Notes: a model not told the origin generated them from the letters alone. DNA of 32,000 nt from Candidatus Nanosynbacter lyticus (GCF_030253515.1 NZ_CP124549.1:390001-422000); one strand, 5' to 3'; counted from the stretch's first letter, positions 9,453-21,262 are shown. Made by a program: numbers and translations.

Positions 9453-10124
9453 CTAATACCAACGCACCATCTCATCAAGTGGCCGGCGGCTGCGCAGGTG
9501 CGGCTGGTCGCTACGACTGGCGTACCCGAGCGCCAGCATGAGAACCGGCAGGTCTTTGGCTGGGTCGATGAGCTGGTGGGTTGTCAGTACCTCTGTCGCC
9601 TGATCAATCGAAAATCCCTCAATCGGACACGAGTCAATCCCCCGCTCCGCTGCCACCAGCATGGCAAAGCCGAGGGCGATGTACGCCTGGTGCGCTGACC
9701 ACTGGTGCAGCCCGTCAGGCGTGTCCATTAGCTTAAAATCGTTCTTCGCCCACTGCTTCCAGAAGGTCTTGTAGGCGGCGCGCTCGACCAGATTCATGCG
9801 CTTTACATCACGGAGTATGTGATCGATGTGGTCGCTAAGCGCGTCGGCCGTCTTGGCGGTAAAAATCAGGAAATGACTGGCATCAAAGCGCGGCTTATTA
9901 ATCGGTGCGCATTTTTTCAGACCCTGGCGTAGCTGCTGATCTTGGGCGACGATGACGTCGAATTGCTCAAAACCGTACGAGGTTGGCGTGAGGCGAATTG
10001 CCTCAAGGATCAGCTCCATATCTTGGTCAGAGATCTTTTTATTAGCATCAAATTTCTTGCAGGCATGGCGAAAATCCAGCGCTTTGGTAATTTCCGCTGC
10101 TGAAATGGTTGGTTTGCTGGTCAT
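9453..10124 (-). CDS. nitroreductase-family NAD(P)H oxidoreductase
   Basis: FRHACKKFD...ISDQDMELILEAIRLTPTSYGFEQFDVIVAQD together with the C-terminal GIDSCPIEGF is typical of the nitroreductase fold. The start overlaps the upstream stop (ATGA). Confidence 0.75.
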   Translation of the reverse strand: MTSKPTISAAEITKALDFRHACKKFDANKKISDQDMELILEAIRLTPTSYGFEQFDVIVAQDQQLRQGLKKCAPINKPRFDASHFLIFTAKTADALSDHIDHILRDVKRMNLVERAAYKTFWKQWAKNDFKLMDTPDGLHQWSAHQAYIALGFAMLVAAERGIDSCPIEGFSIDQATEVLTTHQLIDPAKDLPVLMLALGYASRSDQPHLRSRRPLDEMVRWY

Positions 10125-10819
10125 TGGCGTCCTCCTTTTTGTTGCCTAATGATACGTTGCTCTTCGGGTGTGAATCGCCGTGATTCGCGCATTTTTTGAT
10201 AGGCTTTGTTGCGCGTCCAAGCGTCGATGTGTCCGCTTTCTAGTTCAGCCAACGTCAGCTCAAAAAAGTTCACCGCCGCCGTTGCATACAGCCAAGCCAG
10301 CCCCATCTTGACATAATAGCCATCGTGCCTGACGTTTCGCAGCGCCGCGAAAACCCGATCGATGCGTGCTTTATCCAGGAAATTAGTCATCAAAGAAATT
10401 ACGCCGTAGCGCACTGTAAATTCAGCTTCGCCTTGTAGGCATTCTAGTGCAAAATCCCACCACAGTTCGCCGGCAAAGCGCCGCTTTTTTTCGATGAACA
10501 CATCAATGTGCGCCCACGAATCAACGAGTGGCAAATATTGTTTAGTCAAATCAATCGCCGTCTGCTCATCGAGCCGAGCGTGCGTGATCAGCAGCCCGCA
10601 TAGCAGCACGTAGTCAAATGACTTGTTCTTGGCTGTTAGTAATCTGCTAATGTCCGCTGCGCTTATGTTAGGCGCTAATTCCCTCGCCAATCGCCGTAAA
10701 TCCGGCACACGCACACCGATGACCGGCATCTTGGTATTGACGATGCGCTTATTAAAGGCGGCGTAGGTTTCATTGCCTTGAGCAAGCGTTTCGAGTTGGC
10801 GCGTGAGGTTGTGAAGCAT
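10121..10819 (-). CDS. DNA alkylation repair protein-like (AlkD/HEAT-repeat family)
   Basis: Length and helical-repeat pattern fit (…VIGVRVPDLRRLARELA…, …WAHIDVF…, …YYVKMGLAWLYATAAV…). The call is by eye only. Confidence 0.5.
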   Translation of the reverse strand: MLHNLTRQLETLAQGNETYAAFNKRIVNTKMPVIGVRVPDLRRLARELAPNISAADISRLLTAKNKSFDYVLLCGLLITHARLDEQTAIDLTKQYLPLVDSWAHIDVFIEKKRRFAGELWWDFALECLQGEAEFTVRYGVISLMTNFLDKARIDRVFAALRNVRHDGYYVKMGLAWLYATAAVNFFELTLAELESGHIDAWTRNKAYQKMRESRRFTPEEQRIIRQQKGGRQ

Positions 10820-10825
10820 ATGTTT

Positions 10826-10854
10826 ATTATAACCTATAAGTGGCGCATTGCTAA
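10826..10854 (-). promoter_or_regulatory. putative promoter; leaderless candidate for the AlkD-like/nitroreductase operon
   Basis: Minus strand TTAGCA - 17 nt - TATAAT - 6 nt (AAACAT) - ATG. Confidence 0.45.
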
Positions 10855-11352
10855 CGCTGCTTCCACCGTTTCGGCGAAACCCGGCATGAGCTTCATCTTG
10901 GGAACTTCTTTGAGATTAAACCAGGCAGCGGATTTATTTTCCCAATTAAGCCGGGGCGTAACGGTACTTGCCAGTTCAACGAGGATAGCAACAACGTGCC
11001 ATTCACGATCTAGTTGCTGGTCAATCTGTACAAATGGCTGGCTGAGCTTCATATTGATAATATGTTGCCTTGAAATGCCGATCTCTTCGGCTAGTTCACC
11101 ATACGCGATGTCTTTGATACTAAGATTGGGGTTGTCGATAAAACCGGATATGCCGTTAATCAGCTCCGGATAGGCGATAACTTCACTGCTACGTTTAGTC
11201 AGTAAGACCTGATCGCCCGAGGCAACGACACAATTTAACACAAAACACACACGTTCATCAGTATAGTTAACTCGTCCATCTTCAAAGCGTGGATAATTAG
11301 CCGTAAGGTCGCGAATGTGTTGCATGTAGGCGGCAGACGATTGCTTATCCAT
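10834..11352 (-). CDS. Nudix-fold hydrolase-like protein (degenerate Nudix box)
   Basis: GFIDNPNLSIKDIAYGELAEEIGI resembles Gx5Ex7REUxEExGU but lacks several invariant residues. Start moved to the ATG at 11352, because the ORF-track extension runs through a tRNA gene. Confidence 0.45.
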   Translation of the reverse strand: MDKQSSAAYMQHIRDLTANYPRFEDGRVNYTDERVCFVLNCVVASGDQVLLTKRSSEVIAYPELINGISGFIDNPNLSIKDIAYGELAEEIGISRQHIINMKLSQPFVQIDQQLDREWHVVAILVELASTVTPRLNWENKSAAWFNLKEVPKMKLMPGFAETVEAALAMRHL

Positions 11353-11381
11353 GTTTAGTACAAATAATCTAAAAATCAAAA

Positions 11382-11456
11382 TGGAGCCACGATCGGGGCT
11401 TGAACCCGAGACCTCATCCTTACCATGGATGCGCTCTACCAACTGAGCTATCGCGG
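11382..11456 (-). tRNA. tRNA-Thr (anticodon GGT), CCA encoded
   Basis: Minus strand GCCGCGA TA GCTC AGTTGGTA GAGC G CATCC ATGGTAA GGATG AGGTC TCGGG TTCAAGC CCCGA TCGTGGC T CCA. Confidence 0.9.
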
Positions 11457-11495
11457 CATATTACTACGTCTAAAAACGGCGCAGTAACAGTTGTT

Positions 11496-11523
11496 ATTGT
11501 ATCATACTCGCATGGTCGTGCAA
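11496..11523 (-). promoter_or_regulatory. putative promoter of tRNA-Thr(GGT)
   Basis: Minus strand TTGCAC - 16 nt - (TGa)TACAAT, about 40 nt upstream of the tRNA. Confidence 0.5.
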
Positions 11524-11542
11524 AGATGATGGCGAGTCGAGA

Positions 11543-12118
11543 CTATTTCTTAGCCTTTGCCTTGGCTTCCGTTTTAGCCTGGTCTGGTGTATCAGTAGCT
11601 TTAGGGGTTGTTGGCTTATCTGCTTTGGCTGAGTCAAGCTCAGATTCGATTTCGCTAAGCACGTAGCCCATAGCGGCGACCAGGGCGATGGCGACAACTC
11701 CGCTCGCAACGTCGTAGTAATGAGTGAAGAAGCTGAGAATAAAGGTGACAACGGTGGCAAGGAACGTAACGACAATGCCAGCGGTAGTAAAGAGCCAGCC
11801 TCGGGTTTGCTTGCGTCGTAGCGGTGAGATGGCCAGTCCGAAGAGGACAATTTCGGTGATCGCAAAGATCAGCGTGATGATCTGCTGCAAGCGGATGATG
11901 GCGATATTTGGTACAAATATGGCGACGCCAAAGAGGGAGATATGATCAGCTTGTGACAGTAATGACAGGGCTGAGGTTAGCGACAAGGCAGCCACCACTG
12001 CCAGCAGTGCGGCGACAATCCAGAGGTTGTCGGCGACCGCTTGGCGCGATTGCTTGGACATGCGTGGTAATGGTTTATAGAGTGCTTTGAGTGTTTTGGC
12101 AAATGGAAATCGTTTCAT
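11543..12118 (-). CDS. hypothetical multi-pass membrane protein with K/A/T-rich C-terminal tail
   Basis: About four hydrophobic helices (e.g. WIVAALLAVVAALSLTSALSLL, GIVVTFLATVVTFILSFF). Tail KADKPTTPKATDTPDQAKTEAKAKAKK. No recognisable family. Confidence 0.55.
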   Translation of the reverse strand: MKRFPFAKTLKALYKPLPRMSKQSRQAVADNLWIVAALLAVVAALSLTSALSLLSQADHISLFGVAIFVPNIAIIRLQQIITLIFAITEIVLFGLAISPLRRKQTRGWLFTTAGIVVTFLATVVTFILSFFTHYYDVASGVVAIALVAAMGYVLSEIESELDSAKADKPTTPKATDTPDQAKTEAKAKAKK

Positions 12119-16048: not shown

Positions 16049-17218
16049 CTATCTCCGTAGCCCCACGGCCGTTTGGACGCGGTGCAAGGTTTCGTTAGCG
16101 ACGACGTTCATGTCGCGCTCGCTGGATTCCAGCTTACTTTCGATTGCCTGCTCATCAACTGCCGCCAGACGCGCCTGGAAATTCGCTAAGAATTCGGACA
16201 CTTCGTCAGCCACGATTCGTTTGAAGTCGCCGTAGCGTTCCATGCCGGCGTACTGGCTGATGGTCTGCTTCAAGCTGACGTCTCGTCCAGCGTCTTGGCG
16301 CACCAGCGTCAAAATCTCCAGCAGATTGGAAATGCCCGGCTGGTTGTCGTGGTCGTACTGTACCCTGCCTAGTGAGTCGGTAGTGGCGCTCATGATTTTT
16401 TTGTGCGCTATCTGCGGGTCGTCGCCGAGGAAGATGACACCTTTGCCGCTGTCGTCGGATTTGCTCATTTTTTTGGTCGGGTTCGCCAAGTCCTTGATGC
16501 GCAGACCTTGGTCTTTACCGAAGAATCGGTGTTGCTCAGCCACTGGCTTGGGCACGGTGAACAATTCGCCAAATTTACGGTTCATCCGCTCGGCGATGTC
16601 GCGCGTAAATTCTAAGTGCTGCGTCTGGTCGTCGCCAACCGGCACATAAGTGGCGCCGTAGAGCAAGATGTCGGCAGCCATCAGGACTGGATAGTTGAAG
16701 AGACCGACGGAGACTTCTTTTTCAAAAGCCAGCTCGTTGTATAGCTGCATAAGTTCCATTCTTCCCGAAATGTTATCATCGTTTTTTTGCGCATCAAGAG
16801 CTTTTTTGATTCTCTCGGCGACACTGCGAATGTCTACCTTACCACCCTTATCCTTAAACTGCGTCATCCGGCTCATCTCGCCAAACCCGGTAAAGCAATC
16901 CAAGATCCACGCCAGCTCGCTGTGGGCTGGGACGCGGCTTTGACGGTACAGATGAATCGCCTGGTTGTCCAGCGGCAGTCCGGCAGCCGTATAAATCCGG
17001 GCGTTGTTGAGGATACTGTCGTACAACTTACTATGATCAATCGGCGTGGTGAAGCTGTGAAGATCGGGGATGAACAGATTGATATCATAATCGGCCGAAC
17101 GGTGCTTTGCCATATCGACAATCGGCAAAATGGCACCAAAATAATTGCCAATGTGAATATCGTTGTTGGCGCGTACGCCGGTGAGAATGACGGGTTTGGA
17201 TGGTTTCATTGTATTCAT
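16049..17218 (-). CDS. trpS: tryptophan--tRNA ligase
   Basis: HIGH motif (DIHIGNYFGA), KMSKS motif, and RMTQFKDK ... NYPVLMAADILLY. AAGGAG SD upstream. Confidence 0.92.
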   Translation of the reverse strand: MNTMKPSKPVILTGVRANNDIHIGNYFGAILPIVDMAKHRSADYDINLFIPDLHSFTTPIDHSKLYDSILNNARIYTAAGLPLDNQAIHLYRQSRVPAHSELAWILDCFTGFGEMSRMTQFKDKGGKVDIRSVAERIKKALDAQKNDDNISGRMELMQLYNELAFEKEVSVGLFNYPVLMAADILLYGATYVPVGDDQTQHLEFTRDIAERMNRKFGELFTVPKPVAEQHRFFGKDQGLRIKDLANPTKKMSKSDDSGKGVIFLGDDPQIAHKKIMSATTDSLGRVQYDHDNQPGISNLLEILTLVRQDAGRDVSLKQTISQYAGMERYGDFKRIVADEVSEFLANFQARLAAVDEQAIESKLESSERDMNVVANETLHRVQTAVGLRR

Positions 17219-17248
17219 TATAACACTCCTTTGGTTGTTAGATGATAT

Positions 17249-17270
17249 AAAAAAGACCGCGCGCGGCCTC
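17249..17270 (-). terminator. GC hairpin plus U6 inside the trpS 5-prime leader (attenuator candidate)
   Basis: Minus strand GAGGCCG-CGCG-CGGTCTTTTTT. It lies downstream of the promoter at 17384-17412 and upstream of the trpS SD. Confidence 0.55.
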
Positions 17271-17299
17271 TATTCATGGTTGGTATTTTCAGAAGAATT

Positions 17300-17377
17300 T
17301 TACGAACAATTCAACAAGCCGCGGCGAACACGCGTGCTTTGCCAGGCGGTGCTGATGAATTGCTGGTTTATAGTCAT
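17300..17377 (-). CDS. candidate leaderless leader peptide (25 codons, one Trp codon)
   Basis: ATG 6 nt downstream of the -10 box. Translation MTINQQFISTAWQSTRVRRGLLNCS*. Speculative. Confidence 0.3.
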   Translation of the reverse strand: MTINQQFISTAWQSTRVRRGLLNCS

Positions 17378-17383
17378 GGGGTG

Positions 17384-17412
17384 ATTATAGCGCTGGCGGG
17401 CGAAATGTGCAA
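17384..17412 (-). promoter_or_regulatory. putative trpS promoter
   Basis: Minus strand TTGCAC - 17 nt - TATAAT. Confidence 0.6.
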
Positions 17413-17454
17413 ATATTTATTATTGCGGTATGGCCGACGGAGAAAGGCGAGAGA

Positions 17455-18930
17455 TTAAGTAGCTTCTGATGTATTATTCTCTTGACTCAGGTTCCGTTTA
17501 TGTTGCATGTCAGTGATACTTATTAGGCTCTCTCTAATGAACTCAATCGGTGCCGAGGCAATTTGTAAATTTGTTGAGAAATTGAACTCATCACGATCTA
17601 GCATGGATGATCTTGTACCCCTATCTGTCAAGTCGATAGCTGTGTAGTTGCTCAACTCCTCAGGTGTAAACCCCTTACAAAGAAGCCGCTTCCAATCAAT
17701 AGTACCCGGATATGGACGGAATTCAAATGTCGAGGCCCTGAAGTTGCCCTTGAGGCTATCGGCGAAGCTCCATAACTCATGGATAAGACTGAGAGTGTCC
17801 CTTATCTCGTCCTCAGTTTCATCTACATGCCCAAGAATAAAATAACCCTTGACATCAATGCCGCGCTCCAAGAGTTTAGAGACAACGCGCCTCGTCATCT
17901 CGGTATCTATTCGCTTGTCAATCCTCTTTAGTACATGCTCATTCCCCGACTCTATTCCAAAAGCAATTTCTTTCAAGCCACTCTCGTGCATAAGATTTAT
18001 CTGATTATTGCTAAGTCGATCAAATACATTTATTCTTCCCGTACCGCTCCATTGAGCCCACTCGCCGATATTTGCAGCAGCGAATGCGCTGGTCATATCA
18101 GCTATCATGCGGCGATTGCCCAAAAATAAATCATCCACAAAACGAAAGCTTGTCACGCCATATTTTTTATTAAGCATGTTCATCTCATACACCACGCTCT
18201 CTGGACTTCTTGATCTAATCTTGATATCTGGGTTAACAGAGGCTGCGCCTCCGCAAAATGAGCAATTGTACGGACACCCTCTTGCGGAAACAATATTTGC
18301 ATGCACTACACCGCTCTCGTCTGTGTATGGGTCTTGTGGCAGGAATTTCCTATCTAGCAGCGGTAACGTATCTATATCTGGCGCAGTATAATATTCACTG
18401 TCCCCTTTTGCCTCACCCATCATAATGTTTCGATTATCTGCAAGCCACATTACCCCGGGGAGTCGTGTTCTATTGTCTATATTTCGTAAAAGCTCAACCG
18501 TTCGCGTCTCACCCTCTCCTATGACAAGTGCTTTACAATTACGCATCCTAGGATCTATCAGGATTTCTCTAGCCACTGCCTTTGCCTGATGACCTCCTAG
18601 CAGAATATTGATATCAGAATTTAGGCTATTACAAATATTAGCGCTTGCTTCATAGGTGGGGGCAAGCAGACCAAAGCCAGCCCAGCGAGGCTTTAGTCTG
18701 TTAATAATCTCTTTCGTCTGCTCATAAGCCAGCCCTTCCGACTCGGCGTCTAAAACACCAACATTGAAACCCTCTACCGCCGCCAAAGTTGCGATATAGC
18801 CCATGCCCAACACGGGCAGCGTGTAGTTGTTAGTCCTTGGTCGCTCCTGATAATCTCTCAAAGGGGTGTTGACGAGCAGCAGGTCAAGATCCTCCTCTGG
18901 TCGAGCTCCCGCCACAAACTCACGTGTCAT
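17455..18930 (-). CDS. B12-binding-domain-containing radical SAM protein (class B-like)
   Basis: N-terminal Rossmann-like cobalamin-binding-type domain (LLLVNTPL...LPVLGMGYIATLAAVEGFNVGVLDAE...ILLGGHQA). Radical SAM cluster motif SARGCPYNCSFCGG. No C-terminal Cys-rich SPASM region. The ATG overlaps the upstream stop (ATGA). Confidence 0.8.
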   Translation of the reverse strand: MTREFVAGARPEEDLDLLLVNTPLRDYQERPRTNNYTLPVLGMGYIATLAAVEGFNVGVLDAESEGLAYEQTKEIINRLKPRWAGFGLLAPTYEASANICNSLNSDINILLGGHQAKAVAREILIDPRMRNCKALVIGEGETRTVELLRNIDNRTRLPGVMWLADNRNIMMGEAKGDSEYYTAPDIDTLPLLDRKFLPQDPYTDESGVVHANIVSARGCPYNCSFCGGAASVNPDIKIRSRSPESVVYEMNMLNKKYGVTSFRFVDDLFLGNRRMIADMTSAFAAANIGEWAQWSGTGRINVFDRLSNNQINLMHESGLKEIAFGIESGNEHVLKRIDKRIDTEMTRRVVSKLLERGIDVKGYFILGHVDETEDEIRDTLSLIHELWSFADSLKGNFRASTFEFRPYPGTIDWKRLLCKGFTPEELSNYTAIDLTDRGTRSSMLDRDEFNFSTNLQIASAPIEFIRESLISITDMQHKRNLSQENNTSEAT

Positions 18931-19697
18931 TGGTCTCTTCTCGTTTCATGAATCATTATCAGCGTAGCAATTGAACTGCTCATATTCTCTGCTCCTGCCA
19001 CTTTGTGCAGCTCCTGGATAAACGCTGCCTCTTCCTTGGGCCACTCGTGGCGAGGCAAGGCCTCCCTTGCGTAGAGGCGTATTGCTGCATCACCATAGGG
19101 ATATGTTGCAAGTTCGTTTGTATAATCTGCAACAGTTGCCCGTGCAGTCCAGCTTCCGATTCTACGTATTTTCATAAGCTCGTCCAATAGATCCGGCGCT
19201 TGAATCTTCTCCAGTCTATCGGCGTGTTCTAAGATAAATCGTGCTGCATTTCTAAGTGCGTCTTTCTTGAAACTCATTCCCATCCGCTGATACGCACTGT
19301 CAGAGACTTCCAAAACCCGCTGCAGACTAGGAAATAGATAATAGTGTACGTTGCCGGTCAGACTAACCTTTTCCCCTATAGATTTTGAAAAAGTGCGATA
19401 CATATTTTTTGCTTGATTAGCTCGTATCACTTGGCGAATAATATTGGTGCCAATGCAGTCCCATAAATTTGGGCACTGCATACGATAGATATGCGCCGCA
19501 GAAGGGCTATCTACAAGCTTGTCATTCTTTTTAAATTCCGTGTAGGGTGCGTTACCCTCTAGCAAGGTATGCTGATCTTGAGATAGAACGGAGTACACTA
19601 ATCCATCAGCGGTTTTATGTGCACACGCAAACGTTCCAGTTTCTGTCTTTACCCATGAGTAGTGGTCGGCTAGATAGTATTTGCTATTGTCTTTCAT
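18927..19697 (-). CDS. AlkA-like HhH-GPD superfamily protein (putative DNA glycosylase)
   Basis: By-eye match to the AlkA/HhH-GPD layout: NLWDCIGTNIIRQVIRANQAKNMY; FPSLQRVLEVSDSAYQRMGMSFKKDALRNAARFI; the helix-hairpin-helix LMKIRRIGSWTARATVADY; then YPYGDAAIRLY with an Asp at the catalytic position. Confidence 0.6.
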   Translation of the reverse strand: MKDNSKYYLADHYSWVKTETGTFACAHKTADGLVYSVLSQDQHTLLEGNAPYTEFKKNDKLVDSPSAAHIYRMQCPNLWDCIGTNIIRQVIRANQAKNMYRTFSKSIGEKVSLTGNVHYYLFPSLQRVLEVSDSAYQRMGMSFKKDALRNAARFILEHADRLEKIQAPDLLDELMKIRRIGSWTARATVADYTNELATYPYGDAAIRLYAREALPRHEWPKEEAAFIQELHKVAGAENMSSSIATLIMIHETRRDQ

Positions 19698-19844
19698 GTT
19701 GAGATTTGATAATTTATTTTATTGCATTTTTCAGTGATCTCCTGCACTGGTCTGGTGTAGTAAGTATTGTTGGTTGCGGTTCAAACGGTTATCGTTCAAT
19801 GTTTTCGGGGTTACTTTACAGACCAAAGAACCGCCTCGCGGTGT

Positions 19845-19873
19845 ATTATAGCAGACGATCAGAATTTTGTGAA
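19845..19873 (-). promoter_or_regulatory. near-consensus promoter of the AlkA-like/radical-SAM operon
   Basis: Minus strand TTCACA - 17 nt - (TGc)TATAAT, about 140 nt upstream of the ATG at 19697. Confidence 0.6.
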
Positions 19874-19911
19874 CGAGGTTTATTCCGTCACTGGCTTCAA
19901 GGCGGGTTTTA

Positions 19912-20790
19912 TCAACGTTCATGATTTTTTTTCGTATGGGTACGAACAGTGGTGCGGCGAGGTGACCTGGTGGTAAGATAATCGCCAGACAGATGCTGCT
20001 TGATTAGTCCGGACAAACGCTCAGCGTATTTATCCGTTATTTCGTGCCTCTGCATGGTCATCGAGCGATGGACGATATTCTCATGCTCTTTGGCTAGTTT
20101 CTTCAAATTCCGCTCGACAATTAGCGGATCAAGTTTGCCCGACAGAATAGTGATCGGGAGTTTCAATTGTGATATATCAGCCATCGTGGTTTGATTGATT
20201 ATTGCAGTATTTAGAGCGGTCAGGAAGGATTTAGCAGTAATTTTATCAGCCTTAAATCCCGCGTCGGGCCATATATTATGTCGGTCAGCGAACTGCAATA
20301 GACGCTTTGAGCTCCTCGGATGCTTGTTGATAAGGCTGTATAGGGCGCGTAATATTTTTTCTGGATGATGGATTTTCTCATCAATCTTAGGGTGATATAT
20401 TGGTGGGCTGCATAGGATTAGCGACTGAGCTAATTTTGGATATTTTTTAGCGAGTTCTACGGCAGCTAGCGACCCCATAGAGTGGCCAATGACGACATCC
20501 AGGCGAGTTATTGATTCGTGACGTAGCGTAGCGGCGATGCTGGTGGCCTGATCGTGGGCGTTGTATGATTTCCAGTCGGGTTTTGGTGAATTGCCAAATC
20601 CTAGCATGTCTATGGCAATGACGCGAGCACTTTTTGGTAAATATTGCTCCAGCGGTTTCCAGGTGCGCCACGATGTGCCCAGCCCATGGATAAGTAGAAT
20701 GGTAGATTCTGGGTTTTCTGGGCGACAAAAATAATGCACATTTAAGGTATACGGGACACGCAGCCAGCGATGGATTAATCGATCAAACAT
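19912..20790 (-). CDS. alpha/beta-fold hydrolase
   Basis: TILLIHGLGTSWRTW (oxyanion region), nucleophile elbow GHSMGS, and a C-terminal His region. Confidence 0.8.
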   Translation of the reverse strand: MFDRLIHRWLRVPYTLNVHYFCRPENPESTILLIHGLGTSWRTWKPLEQYLPKSARVIAIDMLGFGNSPKPDWKSYNAHDQATSIAATLRHESITRLDVVIGHSMGSLAAVELAKKYPKLAQSLILCSPPIYHPKIDEKIHHPEKILRALYSLINKHPRSSKRLLQFADRHNIWPDAGFKADKITAKSFLTALNTAIINQTTMADISQLKLPITILSGKLDPLIVERNLKKLAKEHENIVHRSMTMQRHEITDKYAERLSGLIKQHLSGDYLTTRSPRRTTVRTHTKKNHER

Positions 20791-20796
20791 TGTATT

Positions 20797-20802
20797 AGTA
20801 TA
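20797..20802 (-). promoter_or_regulatory. -10 box (TATACT) 6 nt upstream of the hydrolase ATG; leaderless candidate
   Basis: Minus strand TATACT AATACA ATG. The -35 is weak. Confidence 0.35.
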
Positions 20803-20809
20803 CTATGAA

Positions 20810-20838
20810 AATACCCCGCCTGTACATGACGGAGTATT
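20810..20838 (-). terminator. probable terminator after rpsI
   Basis: Minus-strand RNA AAUACUCCGUC-AUGUACA-GGCGGGGUAUU, 11 bp including two G-U pairs, followed by UUC. Confidence 0.5.
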
Positions 20839-20863
20839 TTCGAGAATCGGTTTCTCCTCTGTT

Positions 20864-21262
20864 TTAACGCTTGGAGAATTGTTCGCGCTTGCGGGCAGAA
20901 CGCAGACCGTATTTCTTGCGCTCTTTCTCGCGTGGGTCGCGCTTGAGCAGCTCAGCCTTCTTTAGGACTGGACGCAAGTCAGCGTGAGCAGCCGTCAATG
21001 CTTTGGCGATGCCAAGCTTGATGGCGTCAACTTGACCAGCGAGACCACCACCTTTGACCAAGATGGTAACATCGTATTCCTTTTGCTTGCTGACGACAGC
21101 TAGTGGATCAGTTACTTCGGCGAGCAAGGTTTTGTTGCCATCCAAGTACTCAGCGGCTGCTTTGCCGTTGATGGTGATGGTACCTTTGCCAGGAAGCAAG
21201 CGAACACTTGCTGAAGCGCTTTTGCGTCGTCCCAAGCCGTAGAAATAGGTATCAGTAGCCAT
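20864..21262 (-). CDS. rpsI: 30S ribosomal protein S9
   Basis: GLGRRKSASASVRLLPGKGTITINGK ... RKKYGLRSARKREQFSKR. Confidence 0.95.
   Translation of the reverse strand: MATDTYFYGLGRRKSASASVRLLPGKGTITINGKAAAEYLDGNKTLLAEVTDPLAVVSKQKEYDVTILVKGGGLAGQVDAIKLGIAKALTAAHADLRPVLKKAELLKRDPREKERKKYGLRSARKREQFSKR

Follow-up and report, generated by a model that had tools for sequence, protein, structure and literature searches.

In the genome of Candidatus Nanosynbacter lyticus (hereafter TM7x), an oral Saccharibacteria epibiont, two overlapping minus-strand genes code for a DNA glycosylase-like protein of 256 amino acids (aa; 18927..19697) and a radical SAM (S-adenosylmethionine) protein of 491 aa (17455..18930). 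They lie within the stretch of 32,000 nucleotides (nt) that we analysed (GCF_030253515.1, NZ_CP124549.1:390001-422000; hereafter the window, from whose first letter all TM7x positions are counted). An earlier sequence-only reading of this DNA proposed that the two genes overlap by ATGA, are expressed from a near-consensus promoter of their own and form a candidate module for nucleic-acid modification, repair or defence. Both open reading frames (ORFs) are present as described, and direct reading of the sequence shows that the first gene's stop codon falls within the start of its neighbour (…ccaATGAcacg, minus strand), so that the two share 4 nt at 18927-18930. An exact protein match confirms N. 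lyticus, a member of the Patescibacteria, as the source. What began as a gene pair in a single genome now extends to a conserved mobile cassette, of which the TM7x genes appear to be a reduced version.

The promoter-like site is also there. Consensus scoring identifies a sigma-70-type site, TTCACA-17-(TGc)TATAAT, on the minus strand at 19845..19873, which scores 11/12 plus the TG extension, is the top site within 16900-21000 and (read as 19873..19845) is separated by about 148 nt from the start codon of the glycosylase, upstream of which it stands. Sites that match TTGACA-N17-TATAAT with at most one mismatch occur twice in the window, against 0.08 ± 0.31 expected from shuffles. A short GC-rich hairpin, ACCGCGAGGCGGT, followed by TCTTTGG (19830-19842, minus strand), comes directly behind the -10 element, where the transcript is predicted to begin. 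A riboswitch and leader search of the operon's 5' untranslated region gave no Rfam match at E<=1, and the folding of this region is not unusual (z = -0.11). Control of the operon by a riboswitch or leader was therefore rejected.

The 256-aa protein escapes routine annotation. It has no Pfam or NCBIfam match, even at E<1, does not reach the gathering score of PF00730 (26.2 bits) and gives nothing useful in PHROGs and PADLOC scans. Its actinomycete homologues score 16.9-18.3 bits against PF00730, and a few family members pass that model (P0220 at 29.1 bits; P0289 by precomputed annotation). Against the AlkA equivalog PRK10308 (cut-off 229 bits) the window protein gives no hit and its homologue in locus L001 scores 20.7 bits. 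Its matches among PDB sequences are 3-methyladenine glycosylases, weak yet consistent. An exhaustive search returned a family of 228 representatives at 50% clustering, and a profile built from 45 members, distant homologues included (alignment A1), matches Archaeoglobus fulgidus AlkA at 1.9e-14, Escherichia coli AlkA at 1.4e-12 and Ogg at 3e-7. The profile alignment sets IGxWTA...YPyGD of the family against GIGRWTA...PADD of A. fulgidus AlkA, with D203 (YPYGDAAIR) on the catalytic Asp240 and W183 (IGSWTA) on the hairpin Trp. W183 is invariant in A1, and the Asp at the catalytic position is at least 90% conserved in A1 and just below 90% in the wider alignment A3. Mean column identity in the family alignments is 31-42%. 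An invariant acidic pair (D191 and D195) and a nearly invariant N-terminal DHPxW are specific to the family, which by alignment reading carries Ala or Gly at the position of AlkA Tyr222.

Structure prediction agrees with the profile. The AlphaFold (AF2) model of the protein (pLDDT 94.2) has an N-terminal beta domain, with strands in residues 6-73, followed by helices. Foldseek against the PDB returned MBOgg1, hOGG1 and A. fulgidus AlkA (E 1.6e-9 to 1e-7, probability 1.00, TMq 0.60-0.66), with alignments to Ogg/AlkA chains that span the full length (275-300 columns). On profile and model evidence, the protein is thus a member of the HhH-GPD superfamily of the AlkA/Ogg two-domain type and a predicted glycosylase; the layout that had been read by eye proved correct, the protein falling inside the AlkA-Ogg fold with its catalytic Asp conserved. 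A Trp instead of a Lys in the HhH hairpin marks monofunctional glycosylases, and the protein therefore looks like one of the monofunctional type. Among its relatives, P0161 (706 aa) has a glycosylase-like domain at 503-686, behind 500 residues without Pfam match, and P0175 (391 aa) joins a glycosylase part to a B12-binding part, either as a fusion or as a frameshift artefact. We set them aside as Rosetta-stone evidence because P0175 may be such an artefact and the N-terminus of P0161 has no assignment.

The 491-aa protein matches PF04055 (Radical_SAM) at 68 bits and, marginally, the B12-binding family PF02310 (33.2 bits against a cut-off of 32.1). The motif CPYNCSFC occupies residues 219-226, and C219, C223 and C226 are invariant in the radical SAM alignment A4. 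No SPASM or twitch domain is matched in Pfam and a single Cys follows residue 390, so that motif, cobalamin-binding-type domain and lack of SPASM all stand as originally read. No NCBIfam equivalog is reached (best ApyD, 119 against 750 bits; then BchE, 90 against 481, and AprD4, 61 against 500) among characterised class-B families that included ApyD, BchE, HpnJ, PhpK, MgmA, AprD4 and others, which places the protein outside the well-characterised clades. More than 100 homologues share 54-59% identity with it, nearly all of them actinomycete, and a mean column identity of 74% in A4 makes the family unusually conserved. The folds nearest to its AF2 model (pLDDT 83.4) are AprD4, MgmA, TsrM, OxsB and CysS, i.e. 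the generic class-B fold; by sequence, its solved relatives are AprD4 and MgmA only, and OxsB was not found at E<=0.01. Sequence and model together identify it as a class-B-type radical SAM protein with a predicted N-terminal Rossmann domain of B12-binding type. AprD4 carries a B12-type domain but reportedly no cobalamin, and because it is the nearest solved relative, cobalamin binding by the TM7x protein cannot be assumed.

Adjacency of the two genes extends far beyond TM7x. A scan for the glycosylase family in 185,579 species-representative genomes yielded 130 relatives, and 80 loci were kept. The radical SAM gene lies full-length directly downstream of the glycosylase in 68/80 of these loci, the remainder being mostly contig ends or decayed copies. 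In the reverse scan, of metagenomes with the radical SAM protein, we found 479 relatives and 60 loci with enough upstream sequence, and a glycosylase-like gene stands directly upstream in about 50 of the 60 (a strict rule gave 45; five more were flagged only for overlap or split hits). In every one of the first loci looked up, a gene of 265-272 aa without Pfam match overlaps the radical SAM start, and these genes are homologues of the window's glycosylase-like protein at 35-38% identity. The expected coupling held in part: overlap is conserved (63/67 measurable loci), but in actinomycetes it spans 11-68 nt and is not ATGA. The pair occurs in many actinomycete genera, several low-GC metagenome contigs and phage SF3, and the cassette to which it belongs occurs in well over a hundred actinomycete genomes plus a Streptomyces phage. 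Very actinomycete-like cassettes on contigs of metagenome-assembled genomes labelled Melainabacteria, Gemmatimonadaceae and Planctomycetota (L023, L062, L082) reflect either horizontal transfer or binning contamination. We consider it highly probable that the two genes work as one functional unit, with deoxynucleotides or DNA bases as its target.

The pair usually has further partners. The common order is glycosylase, radical SAM gene, a paralogue of deoxythymidine monophosphate (dTMP) kinase and then a MutT-like NUDIX or a CYTH hydrolase. With 108 bits, the kinase exceeds the TIGR00041 cut-off (83 bits), and it matches Tmk entries of the PDB at 1e-18, which by sequence makes it a true dTMP-kinase relative. 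The gene that follows it encodes a NUDIX protein with MutT-like similarity; in loci without NUDIX, a CYTH (triphosphate tunnel) gene lies at the same end of the cassette on the opposite strand, and the two are almost mutually exclusive. We recorded architectures in 87 loci with a complete radical SAM gene and >=2.2 kb downstream (G, glycosylase; R, radical SAM; T, kinase; N, NUDIX; C, CYTH). G-R-T-N accounts for 52/87 and G-R-T-C for 10/87, and a further 2/87 have G-R-T with both N and C. Shorter versions are G-R-T (7/87), G-R-N (2/87), G-R-C (1/87) and G-R only (6/87), and 7/87 have no HhH-GPD glycosylase. Where checked, these seven loci contain a gene of the uracil-DNA glycosylase (UDG) superfamily or are short or fragmentary, and a complete lack of partner genes is seen in only 2/87 loci. 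When about 1,150 flanking ORFs were clustered, no conserved neighbour emerged beyond the four cassette genes, with a crude, GC3-filtered caller that may have missed small genes.

Of the seven loci lacking HhH-GPD, at least three (L137, L141, L171) fall in a divergent clade of low-GC radical SAM genes, where a UDG-superfamily gene and a Tmk-like gene are found nearby; in L151 they are more distant. The UDG-superfamily protein of this clade (L137 2723-7503, L141 459-6207, L171, L175) has an unusual motif A, GISGKPG. The clade also has a divergent trio of an IrrE/M78 peptidase, a 144-aa protein and a 218-aa helix-turn-helix protein, to which L141 adds a LexA-like repressor and a 323-aa protein. 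Because NUDIX and CYTH alternate at the same end of the cassette, what is required there is probably nucleoside-phosphate hydrolase activity, and because a UDG-superfamily protein can stand in place of HhH-GPD, the other requirement is probably glycosylase activity on a pyrimidine-type base. That glycosylase and hydrolase are each swapped for a non-homologous protein of the same predicted activity argues that these activities, rather than moonlighting functions, are needed. On sequence grounds, such non-homologous replacement is the strongest computational argument that the cassette needs both a glycosylase and a nucleotide hydrolase.

The cassette is mobile. Its contexts vary and include WhiJ-like HTH_31/DUF5753 and DUF397 pairs, integrases, an NB-ARC-TPR protein and a ThiF-JAB/DUF6527 system, and in some loci IrrE/LexA-type regulators and the ThiF-JAB system are near it. 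It is present in nine IMG/VR prophage contigs, and in the prophage of L004/L005 it sits between the lysogeny genes and the lysis/tail genes. In SF3, an isolated temperate Streptomyces phage, gp35-gp38 encode an HhH-GPD-like protein, a B12 radical SAM protein, a thymidylate kinase and a NUDIX protein; the four genes all overlap, have the lysis genes on one side and the integrase on the other, and do not sit with the replication genes. The SF3 genome paper tabulates these domains without comment. In L146 (4015-7440), a divergent radical SAM gene (47% identity) directly follows genes for a ThiF-JAB fusion and a DUF6527 protein, a ubiquitin-like conjugation module of a type known from defence islands. 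In PADLOC-DB v2, none of the validated defence systems is matched by the cassette proteins, and the glycosylase has no hit at all. Against PADLOC candidate models, the radical SAM protein scores 23-31 bits (PDC-M51A), the kinase 35-40 bits (PDC-M51B) and the NUDIX protein 36.6 bits (PDC-S07), all of them weak hits; in the candidate system PDC-M51, model A is a radical SAM protein and model B is Tmk-like. For CBASS, the DefensePredictor supplement names HhH-GPD Ogg-like accessory genes.

Within the window, TM7x has retained no more than the core pair: we found no homologue of the cassette-type kinase, NUDIX or CYTH proteins and no kinase or NUDIX remnant. The proposal of a two-gene module thus needs qualification: the pair is real, but the full system normally adds the dTMP-kinase paralogue and NUDIX/CYTH, both of which are absent here. 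In locus L095 (43% G+C), which holds the closest relative of the TM7x radical SAM protein (69% identity), the glycosylase gene lies upstream, and a Tmk-like gene downstream, of the radical SAM gene. Elsewhere among oral Saccharibacteria, contigs have the glycosylase (87% identity in protein, 89% in nucleotide sequence) but no radical SAM gene. This copy follows a CYTH-domain gene (L096 3742-5137; L097) and belongs to a cluster of 682 member sequences, and nucleotide homology between TM7x and its closest Saccharibacteria copies stops exactly at the borders of the glycosylase gene. A dN/dS of 0.19 between the TM7x glycosylase and the L096 copy indicates purifying selection. In L098-L100 the glycosylase-like gene is split into ORFs of 123 and 117 aa; it lies near an OLD-like TOPRIM/AAA_15 nuclease gene, a NUDIX gene and a Ham1-like gene.

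Lone glycosylases also occur in actinomycetes. In Actinosynnema, Saccharothrix and Acrocarpospora (L010, L012, L020, L037, L079, L081; at about 10000-11700) the glycosylase is kept, the radical SAM gene is missing or cut to its first ~100 residues, and there is no kinase or NUDIX gene either. Two small ORFs of 176 and 113 aa without Pfam match take the place of the radical SAM gene in L012 at least. The asymmetry is clear: the glycosylase can stand alone, and the radical SAM gene almost never occurs without a glycosylase. As a unit, then, the pair is coupled in most loci, but its closest Saccharibacteria glycosylase is found without the radical SAM partner.

The surroundings of the pair in TM7x differ in base composition from the rest of the window. 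Together with an upstream alpha/beta-hydrolase gene (19912..20790), the two genes form a low-GC segment (17000-20800) of about 45% G+C (about 0.44-0.47), against 51.5% for the window and 0.52-0.60 for the flanks. One flank is housekeeping (tryptophanyl-tRNA synthetase, a pseudouridine synthase and DNA polymerase III delta') and the other contains ribosomal protein genes and rpoA-like ORFs. An inverted pair of 17 nt (17303-17319/20869-20885, 88% complementary) was rejected as the borders of an island because a rough estimate puts it at about chance level. Between the radical SAM stop and trpS (start 17218) lies a promoter-like site (17413..17384, minus strand), followed by a 25-aa ORF with one Trp, MTINQQFISTAWQSTRVRRGLLNCS, and then by a terminator-like hairpin with a T-run (17271..17252, minus strand). 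Together these may form a leader of attenuator type that serves trpS; the candidate leader (17252-17413) has no T-box or other Rfam match. Elsewhere in the window, a gene for an AlkC/AlkD-type DNA_alkylation repair protein (PF08713; 10121..10819, minus strand) adjoins a NUDIX gene (10834..11442), a second pairing of a glycosylase with NUDIX, and lies next to a nitroreductase gene (9453..10124).

Taking as direct support the family and fold assignments, the overlapping pair, the accessory genes with their non-homologous substitutes and the mobility of the cassette, we infer a substrate and reaction for the radical SAM protein, a base removed by the glycosylase and a biological role. Our preferred, though tentative, reading is that the pair is the core, in its smallest form, of a mobile cassette for a non-canonical pyrimidine deoxynucleotide, which would be handled through a 'poison nucleotide plus excision' mechanism. 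The NUDIX or CYTH hydrolase would lower the phosphate state of a nucleoside or deoxynucleoside triphosphate ((d)NTP), the B12-type radical SAM enzyme would alter the monophosphate, most likely by C-methylation of a substrate of the deoxyuridine monophosphate (dUMP)/dTMP type, and the dTMP-kinase paralogue would re-phosphorylate the product on its way into DNA. The AlkA-like, presumably monofunctional, glycosylase would then excise the non-canonical base from duplex DNA, the hydrolase policing the nucleotide pool while the glycosylase polices DNA. Base excision repair would keep the producer's chromosome clean, and the DNA of a fast-replicating invader would gather modified bases and abasic sites; excision might thereby both shield the host and break the invader. 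The net effect would be a conflict or lysogenic-conversion module with the glycosylase as its immunity-like partner. In TM7x, a housekeeping kinase and hydrolase would have to supply the missing steps.

Several lines of reasoning lead to this proposal. Since the glycosylase is maintained in genomes without the radical SAM gene, it cannot be attacking a canonical base, and its target would be non-canonical. That dTMP kinase follows the radical SAM gene across clades and that UDG can replace HhH-GPD make a uracil- or thymine-type base, as a free deoxynucleotide, the probable substrate. Phage base-replacement pathways, as in T4 and SPO1, combine a dNTPase, an enzyme that modifies deoxynucleoside monophosphates (dNMPs) and a dNMP kinase. 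By analogy, the combination of hydrolase, modifier and kinase in the cassette would follow this classical scheme and favours a model in which the pool is written and the base excised. The asymmetry between producer and protector and the prophage moron position suggest a conflict role in which replicating invader DNA is poisoned; prophage carriage, and the siting of the cassette outside the replication module of SF3, were counted for the model as a conflict context. The more specific proposition, that the radical SAM enzyme makes a new C-alkylated pyrimidine deoxynucleotide and that what becomes of DNA carrying this base depends on the dedicated glycosylase of the overlapping gene, is possible but somewhat doubtful.

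A number of points weigh against the poison-and-excision proposal. The constitutive-looking TM7x promoter and the lack of kinase and hydrolase are the main difficulty: a promoter that is near consensus and probably constitutive sits badly with a product that harms DNA, and neither accessory enzyme of the cassette type is encoded in the window. With the product triphosphate destroyed by the hydrolase and built up by the kinase, the cycle looks futile, unless the two act at different times or on different substrates. The tightest link, moreover, is that between glycosylase and radical SAM gene, not between radical SAM gene and kinase, and would better fit a complex on DNA. The nearest solved relative, AprD4, is a dehydratase and not a methylase, so C-methylation is merely the commonest reaction of the class, and the AlkA-like fold is classically tied to alkylated purines, not pyrimidines. 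The absence of a match to any validated PADLOC system, with only weak candidate hits (PDC-M51A/B, PDC-S07), also counts against it.

The tight link might instead reflect chemistry on polymeric DNA, an unlikely alternative in our view. Here the HhH-GPD protein would flip a base in duplex DNA, a radical SAM protein in complex with it would C-methylate or otherwise change the base after replication, and kinase and NUDIX/CYTH would merely process modified nucleotides from DNA turnover. The pair is indeed the most tightly linked part of the cassette and the sole part kept in TM7x, the promoter would suit an epigenetic-type mark, the DHPxW motif could be an interface, and a radical SAM protein (phage M6 gp53) and the HhH-fold AADT/aGPT-Pplase act on polymeric DNA (PMC8989533). 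However, pure base flipping has no need of the conserved catalytic Asp, the cassette protein has no likeness to aGPT-Pplase (no Pfam match; BFVD Pplase1 at E 1.8, probability 0.13), its gene survives alone under purifying selection, and the genuine dTMP kinase that follows the radical SAM gene even in the HhH-GPD-less clade points to a free-nucleotide substrate. Distinctly unlikely is a damage-control system like MutT/MutM/MutY for a thymine- or uracil-type lesion, in which NUDIX/CYTH would clean the pool, the glycosylase would excise, the radical SAM enzyme would reverse the lesion in the nucleotide or in DNA and the kinase would return the repaired dTMP to the pool. All of its parts would be harmless if constitutive, matching the TM7x promoter, and the glycosylase-plus-CYTH arrangement of Saccharibacteria is exactly a 'sanitise plus excise' pair. 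The cassette NUDIX is MutT-like, LexA-like and IrrE-type regulators adjoin the low-GC clade radical SAM gene, and spore photoproduct lyase (SPL) offers a precedent for radical SAM repair (cited in PMC8989533). Yet repairing a damaged mononucleotide rather than discarding it is of little obvious value, a sporadic, mobile, prophage/moron distribution is unusual for core repair, and TM7x already has an AlkD-like glycosylase beside NUDIX 7 kb away. We also know of no class-B radical SAM enzyme that reverses a lesion.

A metabolic role would unite the four activities under one familiar theme: in an auxiliary cassette for phages and reduced genomes, NUDIX/CYTH would act as a dUTPase analogue, the radical SAM enzyme would methylate dUMP to dTMP independently of folate, Tmk would make deoxythymidine diphosphate (dTDP) and the glycosylase would remove uracil. 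Most class-B enzymes among the NCBIfam neighbours are methylases, the 74% column identity of the radical SAM family suits a small invariant substrate, a UDG-superfamily protein stands beside Tmk in the divergent clade, and no thymidylate synthase is annotated in SF3 within the 14-61 kb examined. Such a module would be non-toxic, so that the constitutive promoter and the glycosylase-plus-CYTH variants would make sense. We nevertheless judge this supply of thymidylate with uracil exclusion improbable: an ordinary SAM methyltransferase or ThyA/ThyX would be far cheaper, and aerobic actinomycete hosts are assumed to own such enzymes already; 130 relatives in the species genomes are too few for a useful metabolic gene; the AlkA-like fold is not the usual uracil glycosylase; and the tight glycosylase/radical SAM coupling would be left unexplained. 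Quite improbable, too, is a cluster for an exported nucleoside-analogue antibiotic in which radical SAM enzyme, kinase and hydrolase would assemble and release the analogue and the glycosylase would protect the producer's DNA as self-resistance. Glycosylases do protect producer DNA in genotoxin clusters, actinomycetes are rich in nucleoside antibiotics, OxsB/OxsA and AlsB/AlsA provide a precedent, OxsB is among the structural neighbours of the radical SAM model and orphan glycosylase copies behave like resistance genes. Against this, clustering of flanking ORFs revealed no conserved transporter or tailoring gene beside the cassette, the likeness to OxsB is one of class fold only and is not found by sequence, and phage and prophage siting as well as the tiny epibiont genome better suit an intracellular role. 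Finally, the end of TM7x/Saccharibacteria homology exactly at the glycosylase borders, with copies that lack the radical SAM gene, could mean that a recent rearrangement joined an ordinary alkylation repair enzyme to an unrelated neighbour in TM7x. This is very improbable, as it is contradicted by the co-occurrence of the overlapping pair in genome loci, low-GC metagenome contigs and phage SF3, and L095 has both the glycosylase upstream and a Tmk-like gene downstream of its radical SAM gene.

If the more specific proposition of a C-alkylated nucleotide is true, the cassette would be a previously unknown immunity or DNA-marking system that writes through the nucleotide pool and erases by base excision, common to actinomycetes, their temperate phages and an oral Saccharibacteria epibiont, and its radical SAM protein would be the first of cobalamin type shown in DNA base chemistry. 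The cassette is conserved, mobile and compact (two to four genes, all overlapping in SF3) and might yield a new non-canonical DNA base with a dedicated eraser, a new anti-phage or lysogenic-conversion mechanism, or a new route to thymidylate. The hosts of Saccharibacteria are actinomycetes, and the distribution of the cassette shows a link of gene flow between the two. The suggestion of a modification, repair or defence module is supported as a candidate, at the level of sequence and model, by tests of family, adjacency and clade set beforehand, and the cassette points to chemistry on DNA building blocks.

Full-text literature searches found no published description of the cassette. To our knowledge, no HhH-GPD glycosylase is hard-wired to a radical SAM partner and, apart from the sugar ring contraction of OxsB, no class-B radical SAM enzyme takes part in DNA base metabolism. 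The nearest analogues in their parts are the thymidine hypermodification clusters of phages, which contain the P-loop kinase 5-HMUDK, an HhH glycosylase-like transferase (aGPT-Pplase/AADT) and a radical SAM isomerase (PMC8989533). They share with the cassette the clustering of a P-loop kinase, an HhH-fold protein and a radical SAM protein, a thymine-centred chemistry and a mobile or viral setting. In contrast, the cassette kinase is a dTMP-kinase paralogue above the TIGR00041 cut-off and not a 5-hydroxymethyldeoxyuridine (5-hmdU) DNA kinase, its HhH protein is AlkA/Ogg-like with a catalytic Asp, and its radical SAM protein is a B12-binding class-B type and not SPL-like. It also has no dUMP hydroxymethylase or pyridoxal phosphate (PLP) enzyme and occurs mostly in bacterial chromosomes and prophage moron positions. 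Membership of the HhH protein in the aGPT-Pplase/amino-acid:DNA transferase family was considered because of this parallel and rejected on the Pfam and BFVD results given above.

In concept, the nearest analogue is the SplB-like 'DNA modification/repair radical SAM' linked to UDG-family/DUF4130 proteins (PMC3765255; bioRxiv 10.64898/2026.08.19.745780), likewise a conserved, uncharacterised pair of a radical SAM and a glycosylase-family protein, predicted to act on nucleic acid and possibly on thymines. The idea that no characterised pathway couples these two families in one operon agrees with the literature searches on the cassette, but the pairing of a radical SAM with a glycosylase-family gene has a bioinformatic precedent in this pair. 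That pair combines an SPL-like radical SAM protein containing HhH_3 with UDG/DUF4130 and is not reported with a kinase or NUDIX partner, whereas the cassette combines a B12-domain radical SAM protein with HhH-GPD and usually has both partners. We take the SplB-like pair to be TIGR03915/TIGR03916; no SplB-like family is among the listed NCBIfam matches of the 491-aa protein.

The individual components of the cassette also have known counterparts. AlkA (E. coli, A. fulgidus) and Ogg share with the cassette glycosylase the two-domain fold, the Trp hairpin and the catalytic Asp in register, but identity is only 11-17%, AlkA Tyr222 is replaced, D191, D195 and DHPxW mark the cassette family and its gene is locked into one operon with that of a radical SAM protein. 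OxsB/OxsA (oxetanocin A) and AlsB/AlsA (albucidin) each pair a B12 radical SAM enzyme with a phosphohydrolase on deoxyadenosine phosphates and thus resemble the cassette as very small clusters of a class-B radical SAM protein and a nucleotide phosphohydrolase. Their similarity is at the level of fold only, however, the cassette hydrolase is NUDIX or CYTH and not an HD domain, and the cassette adds a Tmk paralogue and a DNA glycosylase. Prokaryotic viperins, which have no B12 domain, are often linked to nucleotide kinases, and both they and PDC-M51 resemble the cassette in pairing a radical SAM protein with a nucleotide kinase in a defence context. PDC-M51A/B are the only PADLOC models matched by the cassette radical SAM protein and kinase, too weakly for membership, and neither viperins nor PDC-M51 are described with a DNA glycosylase, which the cassette has. 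The cassette is thus a new combination of known families, and its place is among nucleotide-modifying conflict or repair modules.

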